From the NCBI GenBank assembly GCA_030390025.1, contig CM059432.1:46192001-46256000 (forward strand): 64,000 nt of DNA, given 5' to 3'. The stretch comes from Squalus acanthias. Its lineage: Eukaryota. The notes beneath the pieces are model-generated. The model was not told the origin of the DNA. It did no database searches and saw nothing but the letters and a program-made list of their open reading frames with translations. The translations under genes were made by a program, and so were the position numbers. Numbering within the stretch: the stretch's first letter is position 1; every line of letters starts with the position of its first letter. Positions 12,122 to 44,568 of this stretch are shown piece after piece.

Positions 12122-13153
12122 TGTAGCACCAGCTTTCTGGCTATTTTTATGAATCACATTTTATATCCAAAACCCCAAGAAAGAACTGTACTGTTGGGCA
12201 AGTTTGTGGGAGTGGCTCAGGGATAGGATTGCAAGCCAGGCTAACCTGACTAAGGTGTATTCATATGCAAATGAACATCTCACACTGACAGGCTGGGTGG
12301 AAGGGAACCCAGGCCGATTGACGTCATCACCATCTAACATGATTACTGGGAACAATACCCCAAGAGGTAACTCAGAGACACTATGCCCTCACATCAATAA
12401 AGCTCAGTCCCAACCGAAACTGGTGGAAGGCAGGAGATGGCCAGGCCATTGTCTTCCAGGAGATAAGCCAGTTAAGCAAGTTCGGTTTGAGATTGAAACC
12501 CATTACCTGCTAATGGGGGCCATCAACTCAGGAAACGACAGACATCCAGTAATCAGCACTCATTGTCTCTCCAGGTGCCAGGCCTGGGAGCGGAGAAATG
12601 GAATATCATTTTTCACAAAGATTTCAAAGGTCATGAGTCACTCCAGGCCACAGGAGGGTCCAGTCAGATCACCTGAGTCAATACATCGATCAGTATTGGC
12701 GGGATAAAAAGGTTTTGGGTATATAGGAGCCGTTCGGGGGCTGCTCTCTCTCTCTCTTCTCCTCGGCGTCAATCTGCAGCGAGTCTCCCGAGTGGGGCTT
12801 GGCTCGACGGAACACCGCCAGAAGCTGAGCGCTGCTCTTCAACCCTCATCAACGGACCTCGACTCAAACTGGAACTAACCAAACCTTAGAGGGTTTAGTG
12901 CTGGGGTCCTGTGTTAGTTTATTTCACGGGAGGGTTCTTTTACTAGTCCGTGGTAATTTAGCACTGGTATGGCTTGTTGGACAGGCCAGGGTTGTATTGT
13001 TTTGTACTGTTACGAGTGTCATTGTTAATCCGATTAAACACAATATGGTTGAGCTCAAACGGGTGTCCGAGTCTGATCTGTCCATATAATCCCTATCATC
13101 CAGAACTTGTAGTAAGAGGTGTGTTTTCAGTGCGCCCGAGAAAACCCCTTACA
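12122..13153 (+). repeat. E1 5' LTR
   Basis: TGTAGCA...CCCCTTACA; direct repeat of 21369-23110 with a few percent mismatch; lacks the 148 bp found at 22126-22273; ATTAAA at 13033. Confidence 0.95.
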
Positions 13154-13158
13154 GAGAT

Positions 13159-13176: not shown

Positions 13177-13227
13177 CGATAGGTTTTGTGTCAGATCATA
13201 GACAGTTTTAAGGGCAAGAGGCCCGGA

Positions 13228-14869: not shown

Positions 14870-17800
14870 CTAGAACGCGCCCAGCCTGAGTACCTGTGCC
14901 TGCTCACGTACGATGAGTGGAGCAGGCCCTGTGTAAAGATGGGGGTGGAGACGGTGCAGGGGAAATATTTGGTGTGCACCGGGGCTTCCAGCACAGTGGT
15001 CCATTCAAAAAACCCGACCAATTCACCCTGGTCTAGCAGGGTCCCATTCAGGCTCGTGGGGTTCACAGCGAATGAGCAGGCTGGGGCAATCTCAAAACCC
15101 CTGGCCATAGAACTAGGATCCCTCCATATCACGTGGGAGTGTGTCCTGATGCAATGGGAACAGCCAGGATCAGGAGTCCTCGGGGCTGACTTTATGTTAG
15201 CCAGCCGAGTGATTGTGGATTTAAGGAATCACTGCCTATGGGGTGCAGCGGATTCAGATAAAGCCGAGGAGGTGCTAGTGATCCCAAGAGATAGGGAAGC
15301 AAGGGGTAGTGTGTGTACTATGAAGCCCAAGGGGAATTACGACCTAGAGCAGTTGGTCTGTAATACCCCAGCCAAGTATCAGGCGAACGTGCGGGACAAC
15401 CTCGCCGCATTCGCCACTCACAAGCACGACTGTGGCAGGGTGACAGGGGTAGAAGTCAGGGTGCAAGGGGACCCCATGTCACGGCCACAGAAACAGTACA
15501 GTTTCCCCAGAGAGGCAGAAGCCGACTTAGAGACGGCACTGGGATCCCTCGTAGAACAAGGGGTGTTGAGGCCGATAGCCACCCACGTAAACTCACCACT
15601 TTGGCCGGTTAGGAAGCCCGACCAGTCGTGGAGAGCCACCGTGGACTATCGAGTGCTCAATAAAAATATCCCAGCCTGCGCATCCACAGTCGCGGCTGTT
15701 GCTGACCTCATAGGGAGCATTCCAGTGACCACAACCACGTTCACGGTGCTGGATATCTCCAATGGGTTCTGGTCGGTTCCCCTCAAACGGAAAGACCAGT
15801 ACAAATTTGCCTTTACATTTAAAGGGCAACAGTACACCTGGACATGCCTTCCCCAGGGGTTTCACAACAGCCCCTCCATATTTCACCAGTGTATGGCCGA
15901 CGCACTCAAAGGCTTCAGCCGACCCAACCAGCTAATCCAGTATGTGGACGACTTGCTTTTGTTCTCCGCGGTGGCGGAGGAGTACAGGCCACTGCTGGAC
16001 GAGCTGTTGAGGCTGTTGCGGGAGACAGGGTTTAAAGTGAATCCAAAGAAAGCCCAGATCGGTCGGGAGGAAGTCAAATTCCTCGGGCTGACTGTGAGGG
16101 CTAGTGAGCGAGCGATAGATGAGGCAAAAAGAAAGGCAGTACAGGAGTTACCAGCTCCCAAGGATATAACAGGGTTAAGATCCTTCCTGGAACTCACAGG
16201 GTACTGCCGGGAATTCAGAGAGGGTTACGCAGCCACGGCAGCCCCTCTGCTTCGGCTCTCCGCAAGGGAGTCGGGTGGGAGTGGGACCAGAACTGCCAGG
16301 AAGCGTTCACCCGCCTCAAGGAGAATTTACAGACGGCACCCGTGTTGGGAGCCATTAACAGTAGTGAGGAATTCCTTTTGGAGGTAGCAGCCAGCGGGGA
16401 TAGCTTGAGCGCGGTGTTGCTCCAGGAGCGGCACGGCAAGCTACAACCCGCGGTCTACTCCTCAAGGGTTCTCACTGAGGTAGAAAGGGGATACTCCAAC
16501 TGCGAGAGGCATCTCCTAGCGACGCACTGGACCGTAAAGCTCTCCCAGCTCTTTACGGAATCATCCCTGATAACTTTACGAACTCACCACACCCCCACTC
16601 AGATGTTGTTAGACGGGAGGATAAAGGACGGAACAGTGAGCAGTGCCTGTATTGCTCGCTGGACTTTATTGCTCTCGCAAATGAATCTGAGAGTGCAGGG
16701 GTTGACAGAGCCAAAGCTGGCTATGAATTTAATCTACCCAGGGACTGCCCATGCGTGTACTGTAGAAGGGGTGTGGGACGTAGGTGTGGGATTCCGGGCC
16801 GGGATACACCCGACAGGCCGGGACATCTACGTAGATGGGTCCAGTTCGGTGGTGAACGGGGAGCATCTCAGCGGGTGTGGGATTTATGACCCCACAGCTA
16901 AGGTAGTGAAGGCCATTAAACTCCCCAGCACCCTGAGCGCTCAGCGCGCCGAACTGTCGGCGGTGGCGTACGTGGTTGCCCACCCCGACAAATTCCCCAC
17001 CCCCTATACCATCTGCTCGGATTCCATGTTCACCTGTAATTCATGCACGGAGTACTTGGCCATTTGGGCCAGGCGCGATTTCAAGTCCACAGATGGGAAG
17101 CCCCTAGCGACAGCACCGTTGCTAGGGAGAATTTTAAAAGTCGCGGGCACCCGGGGAGATTACTACATACACAAGGTTAAAGCCCATTCAAAGACAGAGC
17201 CCAAGTGGGAGGGCAACCAAAAGGCAGACGAGCTGGCCAAACAGGGGGCCAGGGAAGGAGTATTCTGGGATCCGTACAGAGCAGGTCTGGTAGCAGCAAT
17301 CTGGGACAAGGGAGGCACACGGGGTTAGCTTTGGCCCCGGACTTAACACAAGTCCAAGCACAGGATCCTGTACTTAAGGCCGTCCTTGTAAAAAGGGAGA
17401 ACGGCGCACCGGCAGAGGGTCCGTTCGGGGCAGTGGACATCACGGTTAAGGAAGGGATGCTTTTCAAAGGGGATCGTTGGATAGTTCCAGCACAGCACCG
17501 GGAGGAGTTCCTCCAGTTAGCCCAAGGGGGCCCGGGGGCAGGACACCCAGGCTGGAAACTACCTGGCAAAGGGTAGAGGAGGCGGGGTGGTGGCCCCATC
17601 TCAGGGAGGAAGTCAAAGAATTCTGTGCGAATTGTTTGGTGTGTGCGGCTAACAACCCCGATCCCCAGCGCAGAAAAGCCCCCATTGGACACACCAGAAG
17701 GGTAGAGGGACCATGGCGGTCCCTGCAGGTCGATTTCATCGGACCACTACCCACCACTAAAGCAGGTAGCAAGTACTGCTTAGTCCTGGTGGACGTATTC

Positions 17801-18748
17801 TCGAAGTGGTTGGAGGCCTTCCCATGCCGAGCAGCCACGGCACTAGTGACAGCTAGGATCCTGGTGAGGGAAGTATTCTCCCGATGGGGACTGCCACAGG
17901 TCGTGGAGTCCGACCAAGAGAGCCATTTCACGGGGCAGGTGATGCAGGCCACCTTAAAACTTTTGGGAATACAAGGGAAGTGGCATGTGGCTCACAACCC
18001 CCAGTCATCGAGGATTGCGGAGCGCATGAACCGGACACTGAAAAAAAGACTAAGGAAGGAGATAAGCCCGTTCCCGCAGAGATGGGACGAGGTCTTGCCT
18101 CTAGTCTTAATGGGTGTCCAGGCCAGCCCCTCCAGAAGCACAGGGTACTCTCCACATGAGCTCATAACCGGGAGGATTATGCGCACCCCAACCCACGTGT
18201 TGGCGCCGGTCCTCACCGAAGCTCAGGTCAGGGAGGTAAACCGGGACAGATTTGTCCACAATCTGTTTGACACTTTAAAACAGATTCACTGGCAGGCAGC
18301 CAGTAACCTGGGGAGCCAGCACTGAAAAAATCAGTTGTTGCTAGAGCCCCAGAGAACCCACGAGTGGAAGGTGGGAGACCAGGTAATGGTCAGGAACTAT
18401 GCCCACGTAGGGGTGTTCGAGCCACTATACATGGGGCCTCATAACATCGTAGATAAGGCGAGGCCCATGGTATATGTGGTGAGACTCCCGAAACGCATGA
18501 AATGGTATCACATCAACCAGTGCAAGTTGTTTAACCCCGAGGAGGGGAAAACAAAGGCAAGGAGAAACCAGGGCAGGATAATGAGCCTGGTGGATGCGGG
18601 TCTTCCTCCCATGGTGCGGGACGATGATGATGACCCGGAGGACGGGGCGGTAAGGAGAAGCAGTCGGGTCCCACGGCCTAGGGTGCCGTGGACGCCTCCT
18701 TACTCGCCGACCGCGAGCCACAAGAGGCCCCGGCTCGAGAGGTTTTAA
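14870..18748 (+). pseudogene. pol: E1 pol: protease, RT, RNase H tether, RNase HI, integrase; disrupted
   Basis: LVCTGAS (protease DTG mutated), LDISNGF, LPQG, YVDD, tether EVAAS...YSNCERHLLA, RNase H YVDGS/AELSA/SDS/GNQKADELA, integrase QVDFIGPL, ESDQ, ERMNRT, GPH. Confidence 0.93.
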
Positions 18749-18892
18749 CCGAGGGCACGCGATAACACGGAACGAACTATAAATATATGTAAATAACGAA
18801 AGCCAGACCTGTGGAGGAAAAACCTCTCACAGAGCGGTGTTGCTTTGTCTGTTTGTCTTAATATAGAAATCAGAAGAAACCGGAGAAGTAAA

Positions 18893-21125
18893 ATGGAGAC
18901 AACCCTAAGACTGAGCATGCTCATAATTCTGGTGGGAACGGGACACATGGAGAGAGGAGACACCGAGGTGTCCTTCCTCTACGGCTGCACAGGAGGAAAC
19001 GGACCCACCGTGACACGGGGGGGCAGGACAGGGGACACGGACGGGATGGCTGCTTACTTCCACGAGGGAAGGTGGCCGGGGTGGTTGGGGTTGAATTTGA
19101 CTAGATACTCCAACAACACCGGTTTCACATTTGGGGCAGCATCCATACCGTGTCCCAAGCTGCAGATCACAGCCACACGGGTTAGGGCGACCGAGGGGAA
19201 GCGCGTTTGTTTAAAATGTGAGGGACACATTCCCTTGGGACGGTGGTGGTGGTTGAGAAAGTTGGACCAGGCCAAGGGTAACAGATCCGCGGACTGGGAG
19301 AGACTGGGGGTCGACACGTACCGACAGATTACGGGGACGAATGGGGGAGTGGAAGTGTGCTGGAACAAGTGGTGGAAGGAGGAGCTGGGCATTTACGTGT
19401 GTGTGGGGGTCAGAACGGATCTGCCCGACGGATGTGTCGATTGCCTTTTCGCGGCAATGGCAGGACTCCGGGGCCGGGATCGGATGGGATCGGAGTTTGG
19501 ACTCCTGCGTGATCCCAGACCCTCCCAACACAGTAAATGCCACAGAACTCGTTGCACAAGAGAGGAAGCCCCTGCCCACAGCCCCACAGGCACAGGGAAC
19601 AGAAATTAGGTGTCCTGCCACCACACCGGGACCGAGAAACGGGTTAGTGTTGGTCCCAACGGGAAAGATCTTGTATCATGATGTACACTATGAGGTAGCA
19701 TCGGTCATTTTGAATTTAACCCGAGTGCAGCTGCCCCGGTGGTGTCCGGCAGAAACAGAGAGGCTTTACGAGACCTTGTTGAAAGTGATGCTCCGCCAGT
19801 TTTACGAGCTAAGTTATGAGGATGAGAGTCGGGAAGGGTTGTATACATTTAATACGAACAGTCGCGTTGGTTCGGGGAGACAGAGGAGAGGGGTGTTCAA
19901 CGATGCTGCCACAGTGTTCAGCACAGGAAAGTCTCTGATAAACAGTTTGGACGATGCACAGCTGCAGATGCAGGTCAACACTCTAGGGATCAGCTGCGAA
20001 AGATACTGCGGGAGGGTAACGAGCTAGAGGGGTCGGAGTTACGGGAGGACCAGGCTATGACCATACATTTAAAGGAGGTCATAGCCGAGCTGGAGGCGCA
20101 CGCTCAGACGATCAATAGTTTGATCAGGGAGGATCGGGATGCGTCGGCACAGGCAGCTAGAAATGATGCGTGTGTGCTGCACGGTGCGTGGCTGCTGAAC
20201 GAAGGGAGCAGTCATTTGGAGGACCTGCAGCAAGGTCGCGTCCCTTCCTGGGTTAGCAACCGGCATCTCACCGCGCTGAGCCCGTATGATAATCTGATGA
20301 GCCCGTGTCAACTCCAGCTGGCCTCAGAGGCCTACCCGGTTCTAGTTGATGGGGATCGTACTCCGAATGCTGGTAATGGGCAGGTCACAGCGGCCAGCAC
20401 TGGTATACTGGGTAGAAAACATTGGTGTCCTGAGGAACGGGGTGCACATGCGGCATAATGGGGCCCCACCGTTCGTAATAAAGTGGGAACACGCCATGAC
20501 CGGCACTGACCTCAAGGGGTGCCAGAGCAGGGGTGCGCACATGGTGTTGTGTCCCCAGCACCTGAACGCGTTCGATCGACCAGTGTGTGGGTTTGAATCG
20601 GAAAGTGCAGATCCCATCAAATGCACCATGGAGGTAATGGCCCAGGGCCACGTTCCACATCAGATAGCATCCGCGAGCAACGGGACGTACTGCGTCACGA
20701 CGAGTGTGGACCAGTATTGGGTACACCACGACACTTGGTGCCCTGTCGCTGACAAAACTTTCTGCTTCAAACCCCACACAGAGGTTCAGGTGGCGCAAGG
20801 GCGCATCATCCCCATTTCAGATTTCACCACGGTACACCTCACGGTGAGCGACACGATACAGGACCTGCAGCAATACGTAACACGGTTCAGGTATGAAATT
20901 CCTCCTCTGCCTGAACACCTCACAAAACTAATAAAGGAAGTTGAACTGTCTCAACAACACTTCTACACCCTCGAACAACGGAACAGGGAAGTGGGGGAAG
21001 AAATAGAAGAAATGGCTTCCCCGCCCTGGTGGGACTTTGATTTGAATGTCGAGATCCCTCCATGGATCCGAATAGTTTCACACACAATAGTGGTAGTACA
21101 ACTAATCATGGTGTTGTATCTGTAA
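18893..21125 (+). pseudogene. env: E1 env: signal peptide, Ig-like domain, F-like class I fusogen, TM; frameshifted
   Basis: METTLRLSMLIILVGTG signal; RQRR/GVFND cleavage site at 19878-19889; heptad region; Cys-rich region; PPWWD followed by hydrophobic TM. Confidence 0.85.
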
Positions 21126-22429
21126 AAGTTATCCTGTAAAAAGAGAAGGAAAGCACTCTGAAATCATTCGGAGGCCCTAATAAAAGGGTAACCAGGAGTT
21201 GTACTGCCTGTAAATATGGCGAATTGAATTGTTATAAGAAACGGGACCCCAGGTTTCATTGATAAGTAATGTACAGTTTGGTCGAGACCCACAATGTGCC
21301 TCCCGCAGCAGAAGACGACGAAATCCGTGATATTTCTGCTTTTGGTGACGAAATATCGAAGGGGGGAATGCAGCATCAGCTTTCTGGCCATTTTTATGAA
21401 TCATATTTTATATCCAAAACCCCAAGAAAGAACTGTACTGTTGGGTAAGCTTGTGGGAGTGGCTCAGGGAATAGGATTGCAAGCCAGGCTACCCTGACTA
21501 AGGTGCATTCATATGCAAATGAACATCTCACACTGACAGGCTGGGTGGAAGGGAACGCAGGCCGATTGACATCATCACCATCTAACATGATTACTGGGAA
21601 CAATACCCCTAGAGGTAACTCAGAGACACTATGCCCTCACATCAATAAAGCACAGTCCCAACTGAAACTGGTGGAAGGCAGGAGATGGCCAGGCCATTGT
21701 CTTCCAGGAGATAAGCCAGTTAAGCAAGTTTGGTTTGAGATTGAAACCCATTACCTGCTAATGGGGGCCATCAACTCAGGAAATGACAGACATCCAGTAA
21801 TCAGCACTCATTGTCTCTCCAGGTGCCAGGCCTGGGAGCAGGGAAATGGAATAACATTTTTCACAAAGATTTCAAAGGTCATGAGTCACTCCAGGGCCAC
21901 AGGAGGGTCCAGTCAGATCACCTGAGTCAATACATCGATCAGTATTGATGGGAGAAAAAGGTTTTGGGTACATAGGAGCCATTCGGGGGCTGCGCTCTCT
22001 CTCTCTTCTCCTCGGCGTCAATCTACAGCGAGTCTCCTGAGTGGGGCTCGGCTCAATGGAACACTGCCAGAAGCTGAGCGCTGCTCTTCATCCCTCATCA
22101 ACGGACCTCAACTCAAACTGGAACTTGGATATCACGTCGGCGGTAAGGAACCAGGAGCGAGATGTACAGGAAGAAGCTGCAAGCAAGACAACGGGCAATC
22201 GGGGTGAGCATATTGCCTGCGCCTACACATCCACAAGACCACTTAGCTGTGTGAGGGGGTGATTGTAAGTCCCAACCAAACCTTAGAGGGGTTTAGTGCT
22301 GTGGTCCTGTGTTAGTTTATTTCACGGGAGGGTTCTTTTACTAGACCGTGGTAATTTAGCACGGTATGGCTTGTTGGACAAGCCAGGGTTGTATTGTTTT
22401 GTACTGTTACGAGTGTCATTGTTAATCCT

Positions 22430-27383: not shown

Positions 27384-28544
27384 CTAGAAGCGGCTTGCTA
27401 TTAGTCGTTGACGGACGGCCCTTGCAGTTTGACCATTGTGGGCCGCCCTCCTGCCTTGGTGCTGCTGCTGATCATCGTCCTCGTCCTGTTCCTCCTCTTC
27501 CTCCTCCTCCTCTTGTGGTGCTGCAAGGCCTGGTGGCATTGGCTGCGTCCTGAGGATTGCCATGTTGTGCAACATGCAGCACACGACTACGAAGTTCGAA
27601 ACTTGCTCAGGCGAGTACTGCAGGGCTCCTCCGGAATGGTCCAGACAGCGGAATCGTTGTTTCAGCACGCCGATTGTGCGCTCAATAATGTTCCTGGTTG
27701 CTTGATGGCTTTCCTGGTACCGCAGCTCAGCAGGGGTGTTTGGCGCACGGAGCGGTGTCATCAGCCAGGTGCTCAATGCGTACCCCTTGTCCCCCAGAAG
27801 CCAACCAACTGGCTGATGCGGTGCCTCGAAAATTTCTGCCACAGTACTCTGGCGCAGGATGAAAGCATCGTGGCAGCTGCCCGGATAGTGGGCATTGACA
27901 GCGAGAATCACCTGTCTGTGGTCACAGACCAACTGCACATTCAAGGAATGGAACCCCTTTCTGTTCCGGAACTCCTCTGCATTCTCTCGCGGAGCACGCA
28001 AAGCCACATGCGTGCAGTCAATGGCGCCCTGCACCATGGGGAAGCCCGCTACCCTCGCAAAGCCCATAGCACGGTCATGCTGCTTGTCTGGGGTCATAGG
28101 GAAGGAGATGAAGTCTCGTCTCCTTCTGAAGAGGGCATTGGTGACCTGCCGGATGCAGCGATGCACCGCAAACTGGGAGATATTGGCGAGGTCCCCAACA
28201 GCAGCTTGGAATGAGCCAGTGGCGTAGAAGTTCAAAGCCACTGTGACCTTCACTGCCACCGACAGAGACGTCCTGGACCTCAGCTGAGGCTGCAGATCTG
28301 GCTGCAGCAGGTGGCAGAGCTCAGTGACCACCTCCTTGCTGAATCGCAGCCTTCGCAAACACAGCTCCTCGGACATATGGATGTAGGAGAGCTGTTCACG
28401 ATATACCCTGGGAGGGTAAGCTCTCCTGTACATGCGCCTGATGGCCCTCCTCCGTCTGGCCATCATTGCCACTCTCTGTCTGCGTCTCACTATCCTCCGA
28501 TTGAGCTGGAGCAGGACGACGCCCCCAATCATTGCAGCCCCCAT
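27384..28544 (-). CDS. Harbinger DDE transposase (HARBI1-like), intact 386 aa ORF
   Basis: [58 protein letters not shown]. Confidence 0.93.
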   Translation of the reverse strand: MGAAMIGGVVLLQLNRRIVRRRQRVAMMARRRRAIRRMYRRAYPPRVYREQLSYIHMSEELCLRRLRFSKEVVTELCHLLQPDLQPQLRSRTSLSVAVKVTVALNFYATGSFQAAVGDLANISQFAVHRCIRQVTNALFRRRRDFISFPMTPDKQHDRAMGFARVAGFPMVQGAIDCTHVALRAPRENAEEFRNRKGFHSLNVQLVCDHRQVILAVNAHYPGSCHDAFILRQSTVAEIFEAPHQPVGWLLGDKGYALSTWLMTPLRAPNTPAELRYQESHQATRNIIERTIGVLKQRFRCLDHSGGALQYSPEQVSNFVVVCCMLHNMAILRTQPMPPGLAAPQEEEEEEEEQDEDDDQQQHQGRRAAHNGQTARAVRQRLIASRF

Positions 28545-29469
28545 ATTCTCTTTGCCAGAAAAGTAATGAGGTGTAGCAACTAAAGTAGCAGCAAAGTTAG
28601 GATGAACTAGGCCAAACTACCTCACAAAGCGTTGAGTCAATGTAGAAGTCTCTCTCTCTCTCTCTCTCCGAATCTCTCTCTCTCTCTCAGAACGAGTGGT
28701 GCATAAATGTCGACCACAGAAAAAGACAGGAAGAGGCCCCCTTTAAATAGCGCCCCCCCCAGCCCCACACCGATTGATAACGTTCCAGTCTTCCGGTCGT
28801 TGGAAGCGCCAGGCGGTAAGGCAGGGGGCGCCACTCAATTTCCACTCCGGGGCGCCCCAAGGGCGTTGCACCATGGAATGACGTCACAATCTGCGCGCGC
28901 AGGTGGTCGCAGTGGTAAGTTTTAGCGCCGCCGCACAATCTCAAGTTAAGTTCTCGAGCGGCGCAAACAGCGCTGTGCCCGGGCGTTAGCGGCTTAACGC
29001 CCCATTAGCGCCCTCTTAAGGCGCTAACGGGAGGTGCAACCAACTGAATTTTTCCCCCCAACAGTTTTATTTGAAAGCTTGTGATTTCAAATAAAACTGT
29101 TGGACTATAACCTGGTGTTGTGCGACTTCTCATTAAATATTCAGGCAATTTTTGAGTATTTATCTTTAAGAATTCCAACCCATTATATAACTCTTACCAA
29201 CATGCAAAGCAATTACAGTTGTCTTACTTTCTCCCTTCATCAAACCATCTAGCATAAATTTGTGCCCATAATCGGAGTCCTTGGAAAACTCAGTCGCCTT
29301 ATTACTTACCTTTAGATTTACTTTAATCTGTTTGGAGGTTGCTGTAACTCTGTCCATCCTCCCCTTTTGGGGTTTGCGAGTAGGTTTCCAGTAGCAGAGG
29401 TAAAGATATCAGATGAACTAGTGAGAAAAAGGGAATTGTTCTCAGAAACCTGTGAATAGTTATTTTTTT

Positions 29470-33607: not shown

Positions 33608-34542
33608 TGAAAGGATTCGCAAAATTTCATGTGTCCTCCCCGAAGATTTTTGTTGGACTTTTTAATAAGGAACCCTGGTCTGACTGAGTTTTAAAATCCA
33701 GGGCATAAAATGGCTGCGGTCAGACCTCGTGACCAAGAGCCTTTCAGACGCTGGCAAACTATCAGCTTGTGTATTCCGATGCAATGGGGACAAACCCAAT
33801 CAGGTCTACGCATAAGGCTTTCAAGGTGTTTGCTCAAATAATCAGCGGGGACATTGAGACTGGGCTGGCCCATCATCGAACCAGTCGGACAAAGGGGAGC
33901 AGTTGAAGAACTGGTATGATACAATTAACCTTTTGTTAAAATTCATCATGCCCAGATCAGACAATAGAAATGAGCTGATCTGAAGGGGGATTAGGACGAC
34001 CGCGAGGGTATAACTGGGAAGACCCAGCCCCTCTCTCTCTCTCTCTCTCTCTCTGCCTGGATCCCGGTTCACCCTGCCTGTCTGCCAGCAGCCAAGAAAG
34101 AAGACCAGAAACTTCATAGCCACGTTTCGACGGCAGAAACAGGGTACAAGGCCAGGCTTTTCCATCCATTTCACCGGTGAGCATTATCTTCTTCTGGCTG
34201 TCGCAAGACAATTTTAGTTAGGCATAAGGGTGGGAATTAATGGGGATATTGCTAAAATTGTAATTTTAGGATTTTCCCTCGATGTGTCCGTTCTCCTCCC
34301 ATGTTAAGTGTAAAACCGTCTTCATATGATACTGTTTCTCTGTAGTTTTACTTCTGTAAATAAACATTGGTTTTCCTCGCACCAATCCACGGGTCTGTTT
34401 GTTTGTCCTTATCGCCGCTCGATAAGTCCTGGGCTCAGAACTAGGAAGGGGATAGCAATTCGCAACCACACAATGGGCAGGACAGCTCAGGAAAACATAA
34501 CTGGCTGACCTACAAATAAGCCCGAGACAAAAACCCCTTACA
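33608..34542 (+). repeat. E2 5' LTR
   Basis: TGAAAGG...CCCCTTACA; TATAA near 34009, (CT)n tract, AATAAA 34359-34364; near-identical to 43641-44568. Confidence 0.95.
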
Positions 34543-34546
34543 GAAA

Positions 34547-34563
34547 TGGCGAACCAGGTAGGA
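34547..34563 (+). promoter_or_regulatory. E2 primer-binding site (imperfect, tRNA-Ser-like ends)
   Basis: TGGCGAACCAGGTAGGA, 4 nt after the LTR. Confidence 0.5.
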
Positions 34564-34617
34564 ACCCAGGTGAAAGCGTGTGATAAGGCAGACCGTGTTG
34601 CGGAGGAGGAATCCGCA

Positions 34618-36455
34618 ATGGAGCAAAGATTATCTATCTATGTGTGCGGCAAAGTTAATATCGCAAAAAAATGGGTGTGCGATATGTTAAAAGCCGAGCG
34701 CCCCCTAGATGCAGCTGCCCAGTGGACAGCAAGTAAAGAGTACAGGAGAGGTATTGAAAAAGCGGTCTGGCTCATGTGTTTGAAAAAGCAGGTTTTAGTG
34801 TTAGACCGTGCTGTTGCAACACGGGCAGCCAAGATCAAACAGTTGACCCGAGAGCTGCAGGAAAAGACTGCAGCGGAGGAGAAAGTAGTAGTGGCCCTCC
34901 AGGCAGTAAGCCAAGAGAGGGCACAGACGGCACGGGACCATCAGGCTGAGTTAGAGTGTATGAGGGCCCGGGCCGTTGAAGCTCAAAGGGAACACCAGGC
35001 AAAGTCAGAGCGCCTGGAAGACCGGATCGCTGAGCTCAAAAGTAGCGCTAGGCACAGGATGGAACACCTGGAATACCAGGTCAGAGAGGCGAGAGGTAGT
35101 GAGGTTAGGTTAATGGACAAGATTTCCAGCCTCACGCAAGAGTTGAAAGAGCAGGAGGAGAAAGTAGGCGAAGTAAAAGCAGCATATAAGCTGGCTTGTG
35201 CCCAGGGGTTTGAAGACACAGACCACGGCCCCTGCAGGCAAGAAATAGAAAGCTTGGGTATGGCCTTAGTAAGGGCGAAGGGCATGGTATGCCTCATTAG
35301 CCCAAAGATGGGCCAGTTGGATTTTACCAGCAACCCAAGCAGGGAAGTCCCACAGGCAGCTCCCAGAAAGGCACTGGTTAGGGAATCAGAGGTTTCGCGA
35401 CCGCCACCCATAGCCTCGAGTTTTCAGGAGGCCTGGCAGCAAGGTGGGGTGGAGGATGGAGCATTAGGGGAGATCCAGCAGGCCCTAGGGGATAAACCTG
35501 GTCCGGGACCAGTGTACCCCTTCCGACAACGGAGGTACAGCCCGCCAGCCGATGGCGAGGACCTAGGGGCCATCCAGAACCAGTTTGTAGTGCCGCATGG
35601 TACCCAACAGCTCAGAGCCATGGTTGGACACATCCCTAAGCTCACAGTGAGGGGGGACCCCTCTCTACATTTCCGGGAGATAGAGCAGGCAGCATCCGTT
35701 AATGACTGCAATGAGGCAGAACAAGCAAAAATGCTGCTGTTCTCTCTGGGTAGTGATCTCCTCCAAACCCTATCGGATGAGTGTAAGAAGGGACAGAAAG
35801 ATTACGAGGAGTTAAGGGATGAGATATTGAAGGCCATGGGACTAAATGATGGGAGTCCGTTCGCCCGAGTGGAAAAAATGGTATAGCTCCCCGGGGAGTC
35901 CCCGCAGGCATTCGCAGACAGGCTGTGGCCAGTCTACCAGAGCGCATGCCCGGAACGCCAGTGCGGACGTTCCTCAACAGAGACCAATTGGCCCACTGGC
36001 TCCGTTGTCTCATGACAAACTGCCTGCCCCAAATCCGAGCCCAGGCTGCGGCCTGGTTTGACCCCCGAAACCCCCAGACCACCGAAGAAACGGTGATCCG
36101 CCAGCTCACGGTAGCATTTAGAAATAACGGGAGGGGAATTGAGATGCCCCAGCCCAAAGGGAAAGTCCACGAGGTTAAACCTGGGGGCCAGAATAAGAAA
36201 GAGTGGCACCAGGAGGGAAACCGTCCCTCCTAGAATAAGTTAAACTGCTATGGCTGCGGGAAGGACGGCCACTGGCGCAAAGATTGCAAAAACCCCTGGA
36301 AGGACACCAAGGGAAAGAGCTCCACATCTCCAGGCCCAAAGGTAGACACTGGGACCCCCACAGTAGAGAGCGTTCTAGAATCACTGCGGGTTCTCCTGGT
36401 CAGTCAGGGGAAGATAGCAGTTCCCTCAGCCCCCTCTGACGATGCCCCGCAATGA
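34618..36455 (+). pseudogene. gag: E2 gag (long coiled coil, capsid-like region, CCHC knuckle)
   Basis: MEQRLSIY aligns with E1 MEDRISS; frameshift near 35930, stops at 35884 and 36231; CYGCGKDGHWRKDC at about 36246-36287. Confidence 0.88.
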
Positions 36456-39400
36456 CTGGAGGCCGCGCAGCCTGTCTACCTGTGTGCTCTCCGGTATGAT
36501 GGATGGAAGAGACCGCTCGTGCAGATGGAGGTAGAGAAGGTTAAAGGGACTTATCTGCTGGATACGGGGGCATCATGCACTGTAATCCACGCAGCTAATC
36601 CCACCACCTCACCTCTGTCTAGCGGGGTTCCATACGTTCTATCGGGGTTCACCGGCAAGGAACAGGCGGGAGCATTCTCCAAACCGCTCTCAGTCCGCCT
36701 GGGTCCACTCCAGACCAAGTGGACATGTGACCTGGCGAGGTGGGAAGCGGAGGGAGGAAAGGGGATCCTAGGGGCCGACTTCATCGTGGGCCACGGGATC
36801 CTCGTGGATCTCCAAAATCATTGCCTTTGGGGGGCTGATACGGGTAAGGAGAACGGTGTGGTAGTAATCCCAGGAAAGGAGGGGAAGGGAATCCTGTGTA
36901 CTGTGAAGCCGAAAGAAGGTTACGACCTCGGGCTCATGGTGGAGGGTGTCCCGGAGGAATTTAAAGCATTCGTGCAGGCTCACCTAGCTGCGTTCACCAC
37001 GCACAAACATGACTGCGGGAGGGTCACTGGGTTCGAGGTCAGGGTAGACGGAGACCCCATGCCCGGCTCCAGAAGCAGTATAACTTCCCCAGGGAAGCAG
37101 AGCCTGATATGGAGATAGCCATATCCTCGCTGGTACAGCAGGGAGTGTTGAGGCCCATAGCCACTCATGTTAATTCTCCGATTTGGCCGGTCAGGAAACC
37201 GGACAATTCATGAAGAGCCATGGTGGACTATCGGGTGCTCAACAGCAATATCCCCGCGTGTGCCCCCACGGTGGCAGCAGTTGCCGACCTTATTGGAAGC
37301 ATTCCAGCATCCGCGACTACGTTCATGGTGCTGGATATTTCGAATCGGTTTTGGTCGATCACCTTAAGGAGGGAAGACCAGTATAAGTTTGCCTTTACTT
37401 TTAAAGGGCAACAGTATACTTGGAACAGCTTGCCGCAAGGCTTTCATAACAGCCCCAGCATCTTCCACCAGTGCATGGCGAATAGTTTAAAGTAATTTAG
37501 TCAGCCCACCAAGTTGGTGCAGTATGGGGAGCATGGCCCGCTACTGGCCGAATTGCTGGAGCTGCTGCAGAGTATAGGGTTTAAGGTCAACCCGAAGAAG
37601 GCGCAGATCGGCCAGCGGGAAGTTAAATTCCTGGGTCTGACCGTCCGCGCAGGGGAGAGAGCCATAGATAAGGCAAGGAGGGAAGCGGTCCAAGAGCTAC
37701 CGGTCCCCAGTACTGTGAGGGGTGTGAGGTCGTTCTTAGGGCTAACGGGGTACTGCAGAGACTTTATCGAGGATTATGCAGCCACGGCAGCCCCTCTGCT
37801 CCGACTCCTACATAAGGGAGTGGAGTGGTCTTGGGATGGGGGGTGCCAGGCAGCATTTGTCCAGCTAAAGAGGGACCTGCAGACCGCACCAGCCTTGGGA
37901 GCGATAGATGGAGGGAGGGAGTTCTTTCTGGAGGTAGCGGCCAGCGGGGACAGCCTCAGTGCCGTGTTGCTCCAGGAGCGTCACGGCAGGCTGAGGTCCG
38001 TGGTCTACTCCTCCAGAGTACTCACTGACGTGGAGAGGAGCTACTCAATTTGTGAGTGGCACCTCTTGGCCACGTACTGGGCTGTGAAAAGATCATCGAT
38101 CTTCACAGGCACCTCTCCCATCACCCTCCTCACACACCACACGCCCACCCAGATGCTTCTGGACGGGAGGATTAAAGATGGGACAGTCAGCAGTGCACAC
38201 ATTGCGTGCTGGACCCTCCTCCTTTCCCAGATGGATCTGAGGGTGAGGGGCCTTTGCGAGCCCAAGCTCGCAGCCAATATGGTATATCCTGGAACAGCCC
38301 ATCGGTGTTCGATAGAAGGGGTATGGGAGGTGAACATTGGTCTGCGGACCGGGATACATCCCACAGGCTGCGAGATCTATGTAGACGGTTCCAGCATGGT
38401 ATCCGCTGGCGAACGTCTCACTGGGTGTGGAGTTTATGACCCAACAGCAAACATTGCCTTGGCGATCAAGCTCCCCAGTACCATGAGCGCCCAGCAGGCG
38501 GAGCTGTCCGCGGTGGTGTACGTGGTTACCCACCCCGAAATCTTCCCCACCCCATACACGATTTGCTCGGACAGTATGTTCACCTGCAACTCGTGCACGG
38601 AATACCTGGCAATCTGGTCCCGTCGCGGATATACCTCCGCTGACGGGAGGCCCTTAACAGTAAAAACCCTGCTGGAGAAAATCCAGGCAGCCGTGGGGGA
38701 GGAAGGCGAGGTCTTCATCCACAAGGTGAAGGCTCACTCCTCCACAGAACCCCGCGGCCAGGGTAACCAGCAAGCTGACGCGCTGGCCAAGGAGGGTGCC
38801 CGCGCTGGCATTTTCTGGGACCCCTATGGGTCCGGGTCCGTGGCGGCAGTTAGAGGCAGGATGGGACACAGAGGAGCTTAGGGGTAGCGTTGGCCCTGGA
38901 TCTTAAAACGGTCCAAGCCCAGGACCCTGTCCTGAAAACCGTCACAAGCGCAGTGAGCAAGGGTAGGAGGATAGAAGGCCTTTACAGCGCAGCAGCCCTC
39001 TCCATAAGGGAAGGCATGCTGTTTAAAGAAGGACAGTGGGTAGTGCCCCAGCAGCACCGGAGGGAGTTCCTTCAACTGGCCCATGAGGGTCCGGGAGCGG
39101 GACACCCCGGGCCTGAGGCCACCTGGCAACGGGTGGAACAGGCGGGATGGTGGCCGGGACTCCGGGAAGATGTCTGCGAGTTCTGTGCTAGCTGTCTTGT
39201 GTGCGCTGCAAACAACCCCGACCCCCACAGAAGGAAGGTGCCCATGGGACACGTCAGGAGGGTGGAGGGACCATGGCAGTCGATCCAGATCGACTACATC
39301 GGGCCCCTGCCCACCGCCCAGGGAGGCTACAAATACTGCCTCGTCCTGGTGGACGTGTTCTCCAAGTGGGTAGAAGCCTTCCCCTGTAGAACAGCCACAG

Positions 39401-40681
39401 CACTGGGCACTGCAAGGATCTTGGTACGGGAGGTGTTCTCGCGGTGGGGACTACCCCAGTTTGTGGAGTCCGACCAGGGATGCCACTTCACCGGCAAGTC
39501 ATGCAGAACACCCTTATGCTGCTCGGTATTCGGGGGAAGTGGCACGTGGCCCACAATCCACAGTCCTCCGGGATTGTGGAACGTATGAACCGCACCATCA
39601 AGGAAAAGTTGAGGAAGGAGACCATGGACTCGCCCCAAAAATGGGCAGAGGTCCTGTCCCTAGTCCTCATGGGGATCTGAGCAAGTCAGTCAAAGAGTAT
39701 GGGGTATTCCCCGCACGAGCTCATGACCGGCAGGGTCATGAGGACCCCCACCCACGTCCTAGCCCCAGTTCTTACGGAAGGGCAGCTTCGGGAGGTAAAC
39801 TGGGACCAATTCGCCCGAACGCTCCTTGAGCGCCTGAAACAGATTTATGAACAGGCCGCAGGTAGCATGGGGAAGCAGCATCGGAATAACCGACTGCTGC
39901 TCGAACCTAATAAAACACATCAATGGGAGATAGGGGACCTGGTAATGAAAGGAACTACGCCCGCATGGGGAGTTTTGAGCCACTGTACATGGGACCCTAT
40001 AGCATAGTGGATAAAGCCAGCCCCATGATTTACGCAATAAAATTGCCCCAGCGCACGAAATGGTTTCACATAAACCAGTGCAAGCTGTATAAGCCGGAGG
40101 CGAAGAAGCAGGCAGCTGGGACCCAATCCGAGGTTAGAAGTCCTCAGCTCCCAGCAGGTCTCAGCTCACAGGCAACACGCTCAGGTACAGTTTCGTGCGT
40201 TGAGGGAGGAGTCACCCAGGCCCCTGTTCAAACCACCCCCCCTCTCTTCTGGGACTCAGGTGGGGAGGAGGAGGAGCCTGAACCAGATAGCCCCGCCCCC
40301 GACCCAGGTTTTGAACCTGGAGGCGAGGACTCTCAGCCAACAGCAGCAGGCAGCGAGGGATTGCCTGTCCCCAGCTCAGACTTGGGAGGGGAGGAGCCAC
40401 GGGGGAAAAGCCCCCAGCCAGCGAGGACTGCAACCCACGGCAAGGGTCCGCTCGCCAGGGTAGCCCCACCTATAGCACTTCCTAGGAGGTCCCCTCGGAC
40501 ACCTCAACCTAGGAAGGCATGGTCGCCGACTCTCCAGTTTAAAGGGGTGACCTCCCGAGCAAAAGTTAAGTTAAAAGACAAAGGTGCCCAGCCAACTGTC
40601 GCAGGCTGTGAGGGACCAGAAGTAAGGGTCCATACAGCCACGCTGCAGGGAGCAGCCTGCCGCAGTCCTGACAGAGTTTAA
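36456..40681 (+). pseudogene. pol: E2 pol: protease, RT (YVDD deleted), tether, RNase HI, integrase with long C-terminal tail
   Basis: LLDTGAS, LDISN, LPQG, EVAAS tether, YVDGS...GNQQADALA, H-H-C-C zinc finger, QIDYIGPL, ESDQG, VERMNRT, GPY. Confidence 0.93.
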
Positions 40682-40936
40682 GCTAGCCGCTCGGAGACGG
40701 GTGGCGAATGTACAGAACTTGGTCTGAGAAGTTTGTAGTTTTAAGTTAGATTGTTGAGTTTGATTTTAAGGTGCGGAACCGTATAGCAGTTTTAAGATGG
40801 AACCGTTCCAGTGTATGTGTGTTTGTCCATGTGAGCTGAGGTCGAGGGACACGCTCACACTTCACCCCAGCCAAGGAGCCTATAGGGAGCCTGGCTAGAT
40901 GTTCTTCATTTTTTTTTTCAGGCAATTAAAAGGGAA

Positions 40937-43241
40937 ATGTTCGGAGGCCTGATCTTGCTCGCCCTGTCTGGGCTGAGCCTCGCGAGAAGGGGCGACACCG
41001 AGGACCACTGCATCTTCGGATGCTCTGGAAGGACGGCGCCTCTAGCCCACGATGGAAGTGGCCTACGCGAGGCGGATGAAATTGCCTCGTATACTCACGA
41101 GGGGAACTGGCCTGGATGGCTGGGGTCAAACTCGACCCAGTACTCGAGCCAGACCGGTTTTACATATGGGGAGGCCTCCCTCCAGTGCCCGAGGATACGG
41201 ATCATCACCCCAAGGATCAGCGTCACCGTGGGCAAAAGGATTTGTTTATCATGTAAGGGCAACGTTCCCCTGGGGCAATGTTCCCCTGGATAGGTGGTGG
41301 TGGCTCAGAAAATTAAGCAAAGACATGGGGAACCCCAGGGTAGAATGGGAAAGGTTAGGGAACGACACCCACAGGACCATCACGGGGACCCAGGGAGGGT
41401 TAAGTGTGTGCTGGGACAAATGGTGGGAACCGGATCAGGGGATCTATGTCTGTATGTGGGGATCAGAGAGAGTCTGCCCCATGGGCATTTCCATCATTTT
41501 CCACAGCCAGTGGCAGGATAGCGGGAGGGGGATGGACTGGGGGTCGCGCCTGGACGCATGCGCGATCCCATACTCCCCAATCTCGGTTAATGCCACTGAA
41601 TTAGTGACCCGTCCCCGACAGCCCCTGCCCACGACCCTGACGTCACGGACTGTAGCAGAGGCATGCCCCGCCACCACCAAGGGACCAGGGAATGGCCTGG
41701 TGCTGGTACCCACAGACCAGGTGCTCTATCAAGGGGTGCATTACGCGGTGGCCTCGGTGATCTTAAATCTCACTGAGGTGCAATTGCCCACGTGGTGCCC
41801 TGCAGAGACAGCTAAACTATATCAAGCCCTCTTAAGGGAAACATTTCAAAAGTTTTACGAATTCGATTTTGCGGAGATCGATAAGACCAAACTGTATACA
41901 CATAGCCACGAGGCTTGGGACGGGGTGGGGAGACAGAGAAGGGGTATTGTTAATGATGTTTTAACGGGTTTTAATGCGGGGTCTTCAGTTATTAATAGTT
42001 TAGATGACATTGAACTTCAGACGCAGATCAACGGTCAAGAAGACCCAATTAAAGAAGGTCTTAACTGATGAGAACAAGGTAGTGGGTTCGGAACTGCATG
42101 AAGACCAGGCCATGACTCTCCATCTAAAGGAGATCATAGCGGAGCTGGAGATATATGCAAAGACGGTGAATGCACTCATTAGGGATGATCGGAATACATC
42201 TGACCAGGCTGCGCAAAACGAGGTGTGCCTACTGTACGGGGCATGGTTGCTGGGCGAGGGCCGCAGAAATCTGGAGGACTTAAAACAGGGTTTGGTCCCC
42301 TCCTGGATCAGCAACAAGCACCTCGCAGCCCTCCACCCTTTTGAGAATGCATTAAGCCCATGCCAGCTCCGACTAGCTTCCGAGGCCTACCCAGTCCCAG
42401 TGGACTGTGGACGTTCCAACCACAATATCATGGGGATAATAGTAAGGATGCCGGTCATGGGCGGGACGGCCCGACCCGCGCTGGTATACAGGGTGGAGAA
42501 CATTGGTGTCATTCAGGGGGGTGTACACGTTCGTTTTACAGCGGTCCCGCCCTACGTCATAAAGTGGGATCACGCTATGACGGGTGTGACCTCTCGGGGT
42601 GCCGTAGCCGGGGAGCACACATCAGCCTGTGTCCCCAGCACTTGAATGCCTATTCGAAACCACAATGCGGGTTCAGAGCTGCTGACGCGAAACCTATAAA
42701 TTGTACCATGGAAGCCATGGCACAAGGCCATGTTTCCCCACAGGTAGCATATATAGGAGGCAGGACATATTGCGTCACCACAGGAGCGTCTCACTACCAG
42801 CACGGACAGCACAGCTGGTGCGCGGTGAGTGACAGCAGCTTCTGCTTTAAACCCAAGGCAGAAGTTCAAGTGGCCCAGGAACGAATTGTCCCCATTCCTG
42901 AACCATCCACGGTTCACCTAACTGTAAGAGAGAATTTCACCAACCTCCAAAAGTATGTGGCTCACTTCGGCTACCAGATTCCCCCTCTCCCAGAACACCT
43001 CATTAAACTATTAAGAGCCGTAGTGGTGTCGCAAAAGCATTTTTATACACTGGAACAGAAGACTATCCAGATAGGGGCCGATATTCTGGATATTATGACC
43101 CCACCCTGGTGGGACATCTTTGAGAATATCGAGGTCCCCTCCTGGATTCGTCTGGCATCACACGCGCTCGTAATTTGTCAGCTCGGGATCGTCCTCTACC
43201 TGGTTTGTGTCCAGTGTAGGAAAAGGGTCCCGAGGCAGTAG
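40937..43241 (+). pseudogene. env: E2 env: signal peptide, Ig-like domain, F-like fusogen, TM, short basic tail; frameshifted
   Basis: MFGGLILLALSGLSLA signal directly after a T-rich CAG acceptor (40921); DQGIYVC; RQRR/GIVND at 41931-41942; PPWWD, TM, RKR; a 16-bp tandem duplication (41257-41288) causes one frameshift. Confidence 0.87.
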
Positions 43242-43640
43242 CAAGAACCCAAAGGGTTTGGAGGGACCAGTATGCTCGGGTAGATGAGACACTCGCGTGA
43301 ATTCCGTGTCGCACCACTTACGAGTGATGGCGGCCTAATTTTATTATTTTTAATAAAGATGGTCCCCTCCGTTTGTTGTTTTTTTTTGATTAAAAAAAAC
43401 TGTTTTTTCCCAAGTGGTGCAGGGGTATGTTGGAACCCCTCCGTGCTGGGATTACTGGAAAAGAATTTGTTTCCTATCTAAAATGCCTGCTGTACACTGC
43501 GGTTATTCTCCAAGTGGGGGAATGTACGTGTCAGGGGAATTAGGATAGGTAAATAAAGGGGAAGGTTGTTTGCGACAGTCAGAAATTTTGTTCACCTCCT
43601 ATGGACACTTCAAGCAAGTTTAAGTCTCCACAGGGGGGAC

Positions 43641-44568
43641 TGAAAGGATTCGCAAAATTTCATGTGTCCCCCCCCGAAGATTTTTGTTGGACTTATTAAT
43701 AAGGAACCCTGGTCTGACTGAGTTTTAAAATCCAGGGCATAAAATGGCTGCGGTCAGACCTCGTGACCAAGAGCCTTTCAGACGCTGGCAAACTATCAGC
43801 TTGTGTATTCCGATGCAATAGGGACAAACCCAATCAGGTCTACGCATAAGGCTTTCAAGGTGTTTGCTCAAATAATCAGCGGGGACATTGAGACTGGGCT
43901 GGCCCATCATCGAACCTGTCGGACAAAGGGGAGCAGTTGAAGAACTGGTATGATACAATTAACCTTTTGTTAAAATTCATCATGCCCAGATCAGACAATA
44001 GAAATGAGCTGATCTGAAGGGAGATTAGGACGACCGCAAGGGTATAACTGGGAAGACCCAGCCCCTCTCTCTCTCTCTCTGCCTGGATCCCTGTTCACCC
44101 TGCCTGTCTGCCAGCAGCCAAGAAAGAAGACCAGAAACTTCGTAGCCACGTTTCGACGGCAGAAACAGGGTACAGGGCCAGGCTTTTCCATCCATTTCAC
44201 CGGTGAGCATTATCTTCTTCTGGCTGTCGCAAGACAATTTTAGTTAGGCATAAGGGTGGGAATTAATGGGGATATTGCTAAAATTGTAATTTTAGGATTT
44301 TCCCTCGATGTGTCCGTTCTCCTCCCATGCTAAGTGTAAAACCGTCTTCATATGATACTGTTTCTCTGTAGTTTTACTTCTGTAAATAAACATTGGTTTT
44401 CCTTGCACCAATCCACGGGTCTGTTCATTTGTCCTTATCGCCGCTCGATAAGTCCTGGGCTCAGAACTAGGAAGGGGATAGCGATTCGCAACCGCACAGC
44501 GGGCAGGACAGCTCAGGAAAACATAACTGGCTGACCTACAAATAAGCCCGAGACAAAAACCCCTTACA
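43641..44568 (+). repeat. E2 3' LTR
   Basis: Direct repeat of 33608-34542, followed by TSD CTGA. Confidence 0.95.

Follow-up and report, generated by a model that had tools for sequence, protein, structure and literature searches.

The envelope protein (Env) of two proviruses of Squalus acanthias carries, in the N-terminal part of its surface subunit, a domain of about 110 residues with the hallmarks of the immunoglobulin (Ig) superfamily (IgSF): a B-strand cysteine, a C-strand tryptophan and an F-strand D/E-x-G-x-Y-x-C motif, present in both proviruses. These proviruses, E1 and E2, lie in the window considered here, which is the whole analysed stretch of 64,000 nucleotides (positions 46,192,001 to 46,256,000, forward strand, of contig CM059432.1 in assembly GCA_030390025.1). 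We understand the domain, with a confidence somewhat above even, as a lineage-specific, Ig-like and probably receptor-binding head on a fusogen of the F type, these terms being taken together as a single reading. A first-pass annotation of the window had already pointed to Ig hallmarks at the N-terminus of this Env, and they are indeed there, in register and conserved. The env gene of E2 is laid out below, residues being numbered throughout after L050, a natural env of 782 codons.

40937..43300, plus strand: env of E2, 97.4% identical (2285 of 2347 aligned bases) to the intact 782-codon paralogue L050
40937..40984, plus strand: signal peptide (Env 1-16), a hydrophobic stretch recognised by eye
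40985..41167, plus strand: conserved N-terminal segment of the extension (Env 17-77; L050:1228-1410), with GC.G, Y.HEG.WPGWLG.N.T.YS and one N-x-T site
41168..41528, plus strand: Ig-like domain of E2 (Env 78-192 of the intact paralogue), interrupted by a duplication
41252-41254, 41301-41303 and 41451-41453, plus strand: codons of the B-strand Cys, the C-strand Trp and the F-strand Cys, respectively
41257-41272 and 41273-41288, plus strand: 16-nt tandem duplication, 15 of 16 bases identical, which shifts the frame inside the B-C loop and links frames A and B
41616..41672, plus strand: Pro/Thr-rich stretch (Env 222-240), read directly, presumed to be a flexible linker
41682..41942, plus strand: F2-like core of 87 residues, which opens with GPGNGLVLVP (Env 244) and ends in RQRR (41931-41942, Env 327-330), a furin-type site
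41943..43300, plus strand: F1-like fusion subunit, in which helical stretches of heptad-like character, a middle region rich in Cys and, at about 43146-43211, a hydrophobic anchor are recognised by eye

The gene is no longer intact in E2, where four frameshifting indels separate it from L050, one within 41257-41288 and the others near 42037, 42585 and 43220. From the start codon at 40937, frame A reads ...ISVTVGKRICLSCKGNVPLG... up to a stop at 41293, and frame B reads GNVPLDRWWWLRK...GLSVCWDKWWEPDQGIYVC..., the two being linked by the 16-nt duplication. Since natural intact paralogues supply the reading, no letters had to be inserted at the break: 21 of the 30 loci of the E2 family (L031-L060, window copy included) run uninterrupted over Env residues 1-240, reading ...KRICLSCKGNVPLDRWWWLRK..., and among the 30 the split at residues 108/114 occurs in the window copy (L031) only. 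The duplication invoked in the first-pass annotation to explain the broken frame is therefore real, and the reading that it had inferred is that of the 21 intact paralogues. Retention of the block in E1 is borne out as well, a single open frame (18893-19405) running there through ...EGKRVCLKC...WWWLRK...ELGIYVC. The corresponding features of E1 are as follows.

18893..21200, plus strand: env of E1, an older, diverged subfamily with several indels, 49-62% identical to E2 in the N-terminal part
19124..19466, plus strand: Ig-like domain of E1, open from the env start until about 19395-19405, the frame being lost just past the F-strand Cys

The hallmarks are tightly organized. Cys106 and Cys167 stand 61 positions apart, inside the span of about 55-75 residues usual for V/I-set domains, leaving the 60 residues between them that the first-pass annotation had counted, and the motifs h-x-L-x-C, W-L-R-K and D/E-x-G-x-Y-x-C are all in register. 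Trp117, located 11 residues past Cys106, where about 10-15 are expected, and aligned with the tryptophan of host V-set domains, CRTAM and CD8 alpha, is kept in 80 of 80 loci, each of the two cysteines in 77 and Tyr165 in 76. The F-strand motif reads PDQGIYVC in the E2 family, other subfamilies having E-x-G-x-Y-x-C. All four hallmark residues are found together in 72 of the 78 loci that are readable among the 80 examined, which makes a chance origin unlikely. Furthermore, all six cysteines of the domain are kept in 74-79 of the 80 loci, and the domain itself is kept in all the subfamilies of this genome.

The domain is under purifying selection, the strongest of the three segments that make up the N-terminal extension of this Env. 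Among seven representatives of six subfamilies, the ratio of non-synonymous to synonymous substitution rates (dN/dS) ranges from 0.09 to 0.33 over the Ig-like domain, with a median of 0.125 for the 8 of 21 pairs where it was computable, synonymous changes being saturated in the other 13. It ranges from 0.15 to 0.39 over Env 20-79 (median about 0.20, 16 of 21 pairs computable) and from 0.19 to 0.71 over Env 191-239 (median about 0.33, 14 of 15 pairs). Within the domain, the C-C' loop has the highest entropy (1.55 bits), followed by the B-C loop (1.25 bits), with a minimum of 0.14 in strands C and C', a pattern that fits a conserved framework bearing variable loops. In some subfamilies the C-C' loop contains N-x-S/T sites.

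We hold an Ig-type fold of the domain to be quite probable, in view of a series of different comparisons. In Pfam, the best match of the isolated domain is Ig_3 (PF13927), over profile positions 2-74 of 78, with E 0.0024 and 18.8 bits; the same family is met on E1 at E 0.13 and in 17 of 20 diverged members at E <= 1, the best at 4e-4. A profile of the domain made from these 20 members retrieves, among Protein Data Bank (PDB) sequences, the V domain of CRTAM at E 0.0044 and 0.0076, end-to-end and with Cys, Trp and Y-x-C matched, as well as CD8 alpha at E 0.06, and when the profile spans 240 residues 8 of its 12 PDB matches are Ig V domains. AlphaFold2 applied to the domain alone produces a model with a mean predicted local distance difference test score (pLDDT) of 65.1 and a predicted template-modelling score (pTM) of 0.60, where seven strands follow one another in the order B-C-C'-D-E-F-G, the F-G region being poorly defined (residues 93-101, pLDDT < 50). 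The PDB chains listed by Foldseek for this model (E 0.02-0.08, template-modelling (TM) score 0.36-0.48) are all variable domains of antibodies, T-cell receptors, nanobodies or shark IgNAR, or else the Ig0 domain of CD147, the antibody-fragment identity of a few chains from receptor complexes having been deduced from chain length. Each of the ten named clusters that rank highest in the ESM Atlas is an Ig family, with scores of 0.92-0.95. Finally, hhalign was run against profiles built from host exons of the same genome. With 20 V-set exons it gives a score of 17.4 (P 0.017, probability 2.7%) over 77 columns, with the B-strand Cys, the Trp and D..Y.C in register, and none of 40 column shuffles reaches that score; with 16 fn3 exons, the negative control, the score is 7.1. 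The two cysteines, which the alignments place in the canonical columns, are predicted to form the B-F disulfide Cys106-Cys167.

A number of observations weigh against this reading. The 18.8 bits obtained with Ig_3 fall short of the curated gathering cut-off of 30 bits, and for that reason the domain is named 'Ig-like' here rather than filed under PF13927. The 17 matches among 20 members do not amount to 17 independent tests, as these members are relatives of one another, and the other Pfam families met among the 20 include Zn_ribbon_11 (3 members), besides MT-A70 (2), CBP_BcsS (2) and two singletons. The 20-member profile likewise matches PDB chains that are not of Ig type: the zinc finger of ArfGAP1 (E 0.036), MOG1 (E 0.3) and an oxidoreductase (E 0.85). 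When AlphaFold2 was given the 240 N-terminal residues with 16 natural copies, the model (pLDDT 41) was too poor to be used, and a Foldseek search of the domain model against the PDB returned no match at E <= 0.001. Neither did the predicted viral structures of BFVD give any at E <= 0.001, the top rows being unrelated phage proteins with TM scores of 0.2-0.45. In the hhalign controls, fn3 scores 17.7 against V-set and host I-set scores 78.6 against V-set, so that the 17.4 of the domain is no better than what fn3 achieves; the score of 18.2 against 16 host I-set exons extends over 15 columns only and is reached by one of 40 shuffles. The 80 loci, for their part, are the best-scoring copies of the genome, a sample that biases conservation upward. 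All in all, the fold tests agree in direction and the register is canonical, and the similarity is far weaker than that between true cellular Ig families, each test remaining below its own threshold. The Ig fold proposed in the first-pass annotation accordingly stands as the direction in which Pfam, the PDB profile, AlphaFold2, Foldseek and ESM all lean, and not as an assignment that would reach a curated or customary threshold in any of them.

It is worth asking, then, whether the domain might be no Ig domain at all, but a Cys-rich, disulfide-knotted domain of another or novel fold, whose resemblance to Ig would come from a beta-rich composition together with motif-driven selection. The sub-threshold level of every fold score speaks for this, as do the six cysteines with their C-x-x-C, which attract the zinc-ribbon and ArfGAP matches, and the pLDDT below 50 of the F-G region. 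Against it, seven different tests point to the Ig superfamily and none consistently elsewhere; in the alignments with CRTAM, CD8 alpha and the host V-set, the columns occupied by Cys, Trp and Y-x-C are the canonical ones; the strands fit in their order and spacing, and the fn3 negative control stays at 7.1. We deem this explanation unlikely. Its particular form in which the C-x-x-C would bind zinc (Zn_ribbon_11 in 3 of 20 members, ArfGAP1 at E 0.036) was rejected as improbable for an extracellular domain, where zinc fingers are not expected in a glycoprotein, although it is not disproved. An internal duplication of the Ig-like domain II of F1 was also considered as a source of the domain and set aside, BLASTP of the domain against the rest of the Env giving at best E 0.35.

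The preferred reading, an Ig-like head, further requires that the place of the domain in the glycoprotein be understood. The first-pass annotation had put it between the signal peptide and a Pro/Thr linker leading to the fusogen. It does belong to the surface subunit, upstream of the Pro/Thr-rich stretch and of the furin-type site, but it does not directly follow the signal peptide, from which some 60 residues separate it, and about 30 residues, also conserved, lie between it and the Pro/Thr-rich stretch. The segment that precedes it, Env 17-77, has motifs conserved across all subfamilies and yields neither a Pfam family at E <= 0.01 nor a confident predicted fold. Together these pieces constitute an extension of 227 residues (Env 17-243) inserted between the signal peptide and the F2-like core.

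This extension is best appreciated by comparison with the Envs of lokiretroviruses, made by eye on 22 of the 23 Env consensus proteins in the supplement of PMC7947760 (Wang and Han 2020), of which 21 include the N-terminus. In all 21, a PGPxxG[IV]VL-like motif opens the mature chain, at most a few residues past the signal peptide, with an R-x-K/R-R site some 85-100 residues further on. The elasmobranch Env possesses a like motif, GPGNGLVLVP, at residue 244, with RQRR at 327-330, and thus 87 residues for the same segment, and the 227 residues upstream of it are absent from the 21 published proteins. To the question raised in the first-pass annotation, whether other lokiretrovirus Envs carry the domain, the answer is hence negative for these 21 consensus proteins, none of which has room for it, and we can therefore understand the domain as an addition proper to one lineage rather than a trait of the lokiretrovirus family. 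Six short motifs of this Env, together with WWWLRK, have no occurrence in the part of the supplement that was searched, and the words immunoglobulin and Ig-like are absent from the main text of PMC7947760. As had been surmised in the first-pass annotation, there seems to be no earlier account: a literature search that did not cover bioRxiv supplements found no description of an Ig-like domain in a lokiretrovirus-type Env.

In other respects the two kinds of Env have features in common. Both consist of a single env placed after pol, with a signal peptide, an F2-like segment, a furin-type site and a long fusion subunit that is Cys-rich in its middle and anchored at its C-terminus, and in both the pol gene has two RNase H domains. 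They differ in that a published lokiretrovirus Env matched the fusion family PF00523 with E 2.2e-7 (PMC7947760), whereas the elasmobranch Env has no match to it at E <= 10, and in that the peptide following the cleavage site is, by eye, much less hydrophobic in the latter. In the published screen (PMC7947760), lokiretroviruses were found in none of six chondrichthyan genomes, Rhincodon typus among them. The present elements either fall outside the lokiretroviruses as defined in that work or were missed by its screen.

The F-type label given to the fusogen in the first-pass annotation is likely to be correct. The nearest ESM cluster to Env 240-730 is PF00523 (score 0.92, 200 shared features), with Baculo_F next, and the architecture may correspond to that of F: RQRR, the 87-residue F2-like core and the C-terminal anchor are read directly, and putative heptads and fusion peptide are recognised by eye. 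The peptide after the cleavage site is weakly hydrophobic. What pleads for the label, therefore, is the ESM cluster, the motif and F2 length noted by eye and the overall layout; what tells against it is that neither the intact paralogue nor the Env pieces of the window match PF00523 at E <= 10, and that an Env profile run against PDB sequences gives five matches (E 0.5-0.6), no F protein being among them.

Where did the Ig-like module come from? The first-pass annotation saw in it a captured host Ig module, and this part of its proposal finds no support in the searches made for a donor. A profile search of 1.84 billion representative proteins, elasmobranch proteomes included, gave 13 matches at E <= 0.001. 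The nine at E <= 1e-10 are pieces of retroviral Env in gene models or on short metagenome contigs, and, of the weaker ones, those inspected comprise one gene model derived from a provirus (P0015) and a pair of repetitive proteins (P0014 and P0016; P0013 was left out); no recognisable host Ig-domain protein is present among the matches inspected. Two word-index searches brought back env-derived proteins of elasmobranchs only, and among 52 sampled host Ig and fn3 exons the highest score with the domain profile is 7.3 bits. Gene models of Pristiophorus japonicus, Rhinoraja longicauda and Rhincodon typus include relatives that bear the domain. As the protein searches and the host-exon sample yielded env-derived relatives and no host Ig protein, the domain appears as a stable feature of an elasmobranch provirus lineage whose donor cannot be named. 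Parts of this env are also present in three gene models of P. japonicus (P0004, P0012 and P0017) that bear the names zinc finger ZFP2-like, Niban 1-like and cadherin-related 5-like, and in which annotation has probably joined host genes to fragments of proviruses.

In its narrow form, host capture would mean that the virus took up an exon or a piece of mRNA from a host IgSF gene, and that the module is still recognisably related to this donor. Several facts are in its favour: convergent beta-sandwiches seldom show the canonical hallmarks of IgSF sequences; compared with the 21 published lokiretrovirus Envs, the extension is an addition; the best PDB sequence match, CRTAM, is a member of the nectin-like family; and an endogenous retrovirus (ERV) provides a precedent, the nectin3 of CrocERV31 (PMC4299795). 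They are countered by the absence of a recognisable host Ig-domain protein among the inspected matches from the 1.84 billion proteins, by the env-derived results of the word-index searches, the 7.3 bits of the host exons and the V-set similarity, marginal and at the level of fn3. Moreover, identity between the captured crocodilian gene and its host counterpart is about 76%, and nothing comparable is seen in the elasmobranch Env. With no donor found and only marginal profile similarity to the host V-set, a recent capture is not supported, and we regard the narrow form as very unlikely. If the Ig module did derive from a host IgSF gene, the event would then be too old, or its product too diverged, to be traced, and a capture in the distant past, whether host or other virus was the donor, may be its origin.

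The reading that we favour, an Ig-like, probably receptor-binding head on an F-type fusogen, can now be stated as a mechanism. The env gene would encode a type I glycoprotein whose surface subunit has acquired an N-terminal extension between signal peptide and F2-like core. The centre of this extension (Env 78-192) would most likely be an Ig-type beta-sandwich of V/I-set size, pinned by the B-F disulfide Cys106-Cys167, packed on Trp117 and held by two further conserved cysteine pairs. The extension would have been gained once, before the divergence of the subfamilies seen here, and kept by purifying selection during virus replication; its being a gain is the parsimonious view, since the 21 published relatives lack it. 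On its Pro/Thr-rich tether, the domain would act in cis as a receptor-binding head above a fusion machine of the paramyxovirus and pneumovirus type (subclass Ib), supplying the attachment function that paramyxoviruses assign to a separate protein, and its most variable loops, B-C and C-C', might form the binding or antigenic face. To our knowledge, F proteins of RNA viruses have no such extension.

The functional part of this proposal is favoured because a retrovirus that has only one env depends on this Env for binding its receptor, and because the extension is dispensable for fusion as such, published relatives doing without it. Granted the fold, we place a cis-acting role in receptor binding at about even, a role that we infer entirely from such arguments. 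The Ig-like block might rather serve as immune decoy or shield, or modulate host IgSF receptors, and receptor binding would then fall to another part of the protein, such as Env 17-77 or the F-like body. In many large DNA viruses, Ig-like proteins serve to modulate immunity; the segment Env 17-77 is conserved too, without family match or confident fold, and the N-x-S/T sites in the C-C' loop of some subfamilies would suit a shield. This is opposed by the fact that the sole envelope protein has the domain as a covalent part of its surface subunit, and that purifying selection is strongest, among the three segments of the extension, precisely on the Ig-like domain; besides, relatives without the extension indicate that it does not serve fusion itself, and a new attachment function would be the simpler gain. 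A decoy or shield appears to us distinctly unlikely, and we come back to a receptor-binding head.

A bolder scenario, possible though doubtful, would go further along that line. An old retrovirus of sharks and rays would have grafted a genuine V-like IgSF domain onto the N-terminus of the small subunit of a bare, paramyxovirus-type F, thereby becoming self-sufficient in both attachment and fusion; the head would be a mimic of the nectin/CRTAM kind engaging a host IgSF receptor, and it would represent an independent third route by which the F scaffold gains a receptor-binding module, beside those of the coronavirus spike and the foamy virus Env, with lokiretrovirus-type elements established in cartilaginous fishes.

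The two proviruses belong to a family that is widespread in the genome. They occupy the window, on a contig (C8) of a genome of 3.7 Gb, from about 12220 to 22125 for E1 and from about 33635 to 44364 for E2, each with gag-pol-env between long terminal repeats (LTRs), whose minimum extents are the following.

12220..12876, plus strand: 5' LTR of E1, its blocks 94-97% identical to the 3' LTR
21468..22125, plus strand: 3' LTR of E1
33635..34338, plus strand: 5' LTR of E2, two repeat blocks, 99% identical to the 3' LTR
43669..44364, plus strand: 3' LTR of E2

In Pfam terms, the pol of both encodes a protease, RVT_1, a Ty3-type RNase H (RT_RNaseH_2 / RT_RNaseH), then a second RNase_H and an integrase (rve, Integrase_H2C2), so that the dual RNase H characteristic of lokiretroviruses (a tether and a second domain), with gag-pol-env between LTRs, is present in E1 and E2 alike. 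Searching the genome with two N-terminal pieces of Env resulted in 150 and 145 scored matches, out of 8937 and 7655 first-look candidates. The family is very abundant, and many copies (loci L032-L060 and L079-L086) have long open env frames of about 780-815 codons; the 99% identity of the LTR blocks of E2 makes a part of it look young. With an abundant family that has young copies, natural intact genes are at hand for expressing the domain alone.

Several other features were noticed on the way. At the start of the gag region of E2, an open reading frame (ORF) of 461 codons (34501-35886, plus strand) has an N-terminal half that is long, charged and helical-looking; it might be the counterpart of the extra 'smc' gene of some lokiretroviruses, Pfam giving it no family at E <= 0.01, so that the published gene could not be confirmed. 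The gag frame of E1 (13800-14786) is devoid of this charged N-terminal part. A subfamily 52-54% identical to the N-terminus of E1 shows the same open frame of 310 codons, with one TAG, on many small or terminal contigs (C128, C2462, C11:149022-220062, C9:223149, C13, C22, C491, C1050 and others), which suggests amplification as part of a larger repeated unit. Two near-identical copies, L002 and L003 (C1:246114932 and C1:246122349), lie on the same strand about 7.4 kb apart; their closeness and near-identity indicate a tandem or segmental duplication of the provirus. The window further contains, judged by eye only, an open frame of 410 codons that looks like a Harbinger/PIF-type transposase (27384-28616, minus strand) and open frames with motifs resembling the reverse transcriptase of non-LTR retrotransposons (709-2124, minus strand, and 9711-10268, plus strand).

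To the question of how a retrovirus with a single, F-like env finds its receptor, the Ig-like module offers a concrete and testable answer for one lineage. The family also suggests that cartilaginous fishes host lokiretrovirus-type elements, despite the absence of any in the six genomes of the published screen.

The systems with which this Env may be compared help to delimit what is particular to it. In RNA viruses, an F protein usually relies on a second protein for attachment. With the F of paramyxoviruses and pneumoviruses the elasmobranch Env would share the scaffold, presumed from the ESM lead and the published lokiretrovirus link: a furin site between a small N-terminal and a large C-terminal subunit. 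Attachment is performed there in trans by the product of an HN, H or G gene, whereas here the candidate module is in cis, at the N-terminus of the small subunit. With cellular Ig V domains such as those of CRTAM and CD8 alpha, the module aligns end-to-end, Cys, Trp and Y-x-C being matched, and its best structural neighbours are of V type; it departs from them in that E-values are only 0.004-0.07, in a short C'-D spacing, probably with no C'' strand, in four extra conserved cysteines and in an unusually high tryptophan content (WWW, WW). The surface subunit of gammaretroviruses, as in the receptor-binding domain (RBD) of Friend murine leukaemia virus (MLV), has an Ig-like beta-sandwich core followed by a proline-rich region, and the layout is thus alike: a beta-sandwich head with variable loops, a Pro-rich tether and a part that contacts the fusion subunit. 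The MLV RBD differs in being devoid of the Cys-Trp-Cys signature of the IgSF, and its fusion subunit belongs to another class I subclass.

In CrocERV31, a whole host nectin3 mRNA, encoding three Ig domains and about 76% identical to the host gene, replaces env (Chong et al. 2014, PMC4299795). There too an IgSF-type protein sits at the env position of an ERV, under purifying selection and with a proposed binding to a host IgSF partner; the elasmobranch case is distinguished by a single Ig-like domain, without traceable donor, that is integral to an Env still looking competent for fusion. In a published analysis, F is described as the minimal scaffold of subclass Ib, to which receptor-binding modules are added N-terminally, as in the coronavirus spike, or internally, as in the foamy virus Env (Fernandez et al. 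2024, PMC11468914). The foamy virus Env family is not among the Pfam matches of the elasmobranch Env. If its head binds a receptor, the latter would be, like the spike as portrayed there, an instance of N-terminal addition, with a module that consists of one small Ig-type domain and its flanks, and not of the galectin-like N-terminal domain and RBD of the spike or of the large foamy virus RBD. It would then lend one more example to the view of the F fold as a minimal scaffold which has repeatedly gained receptor-binding modules.

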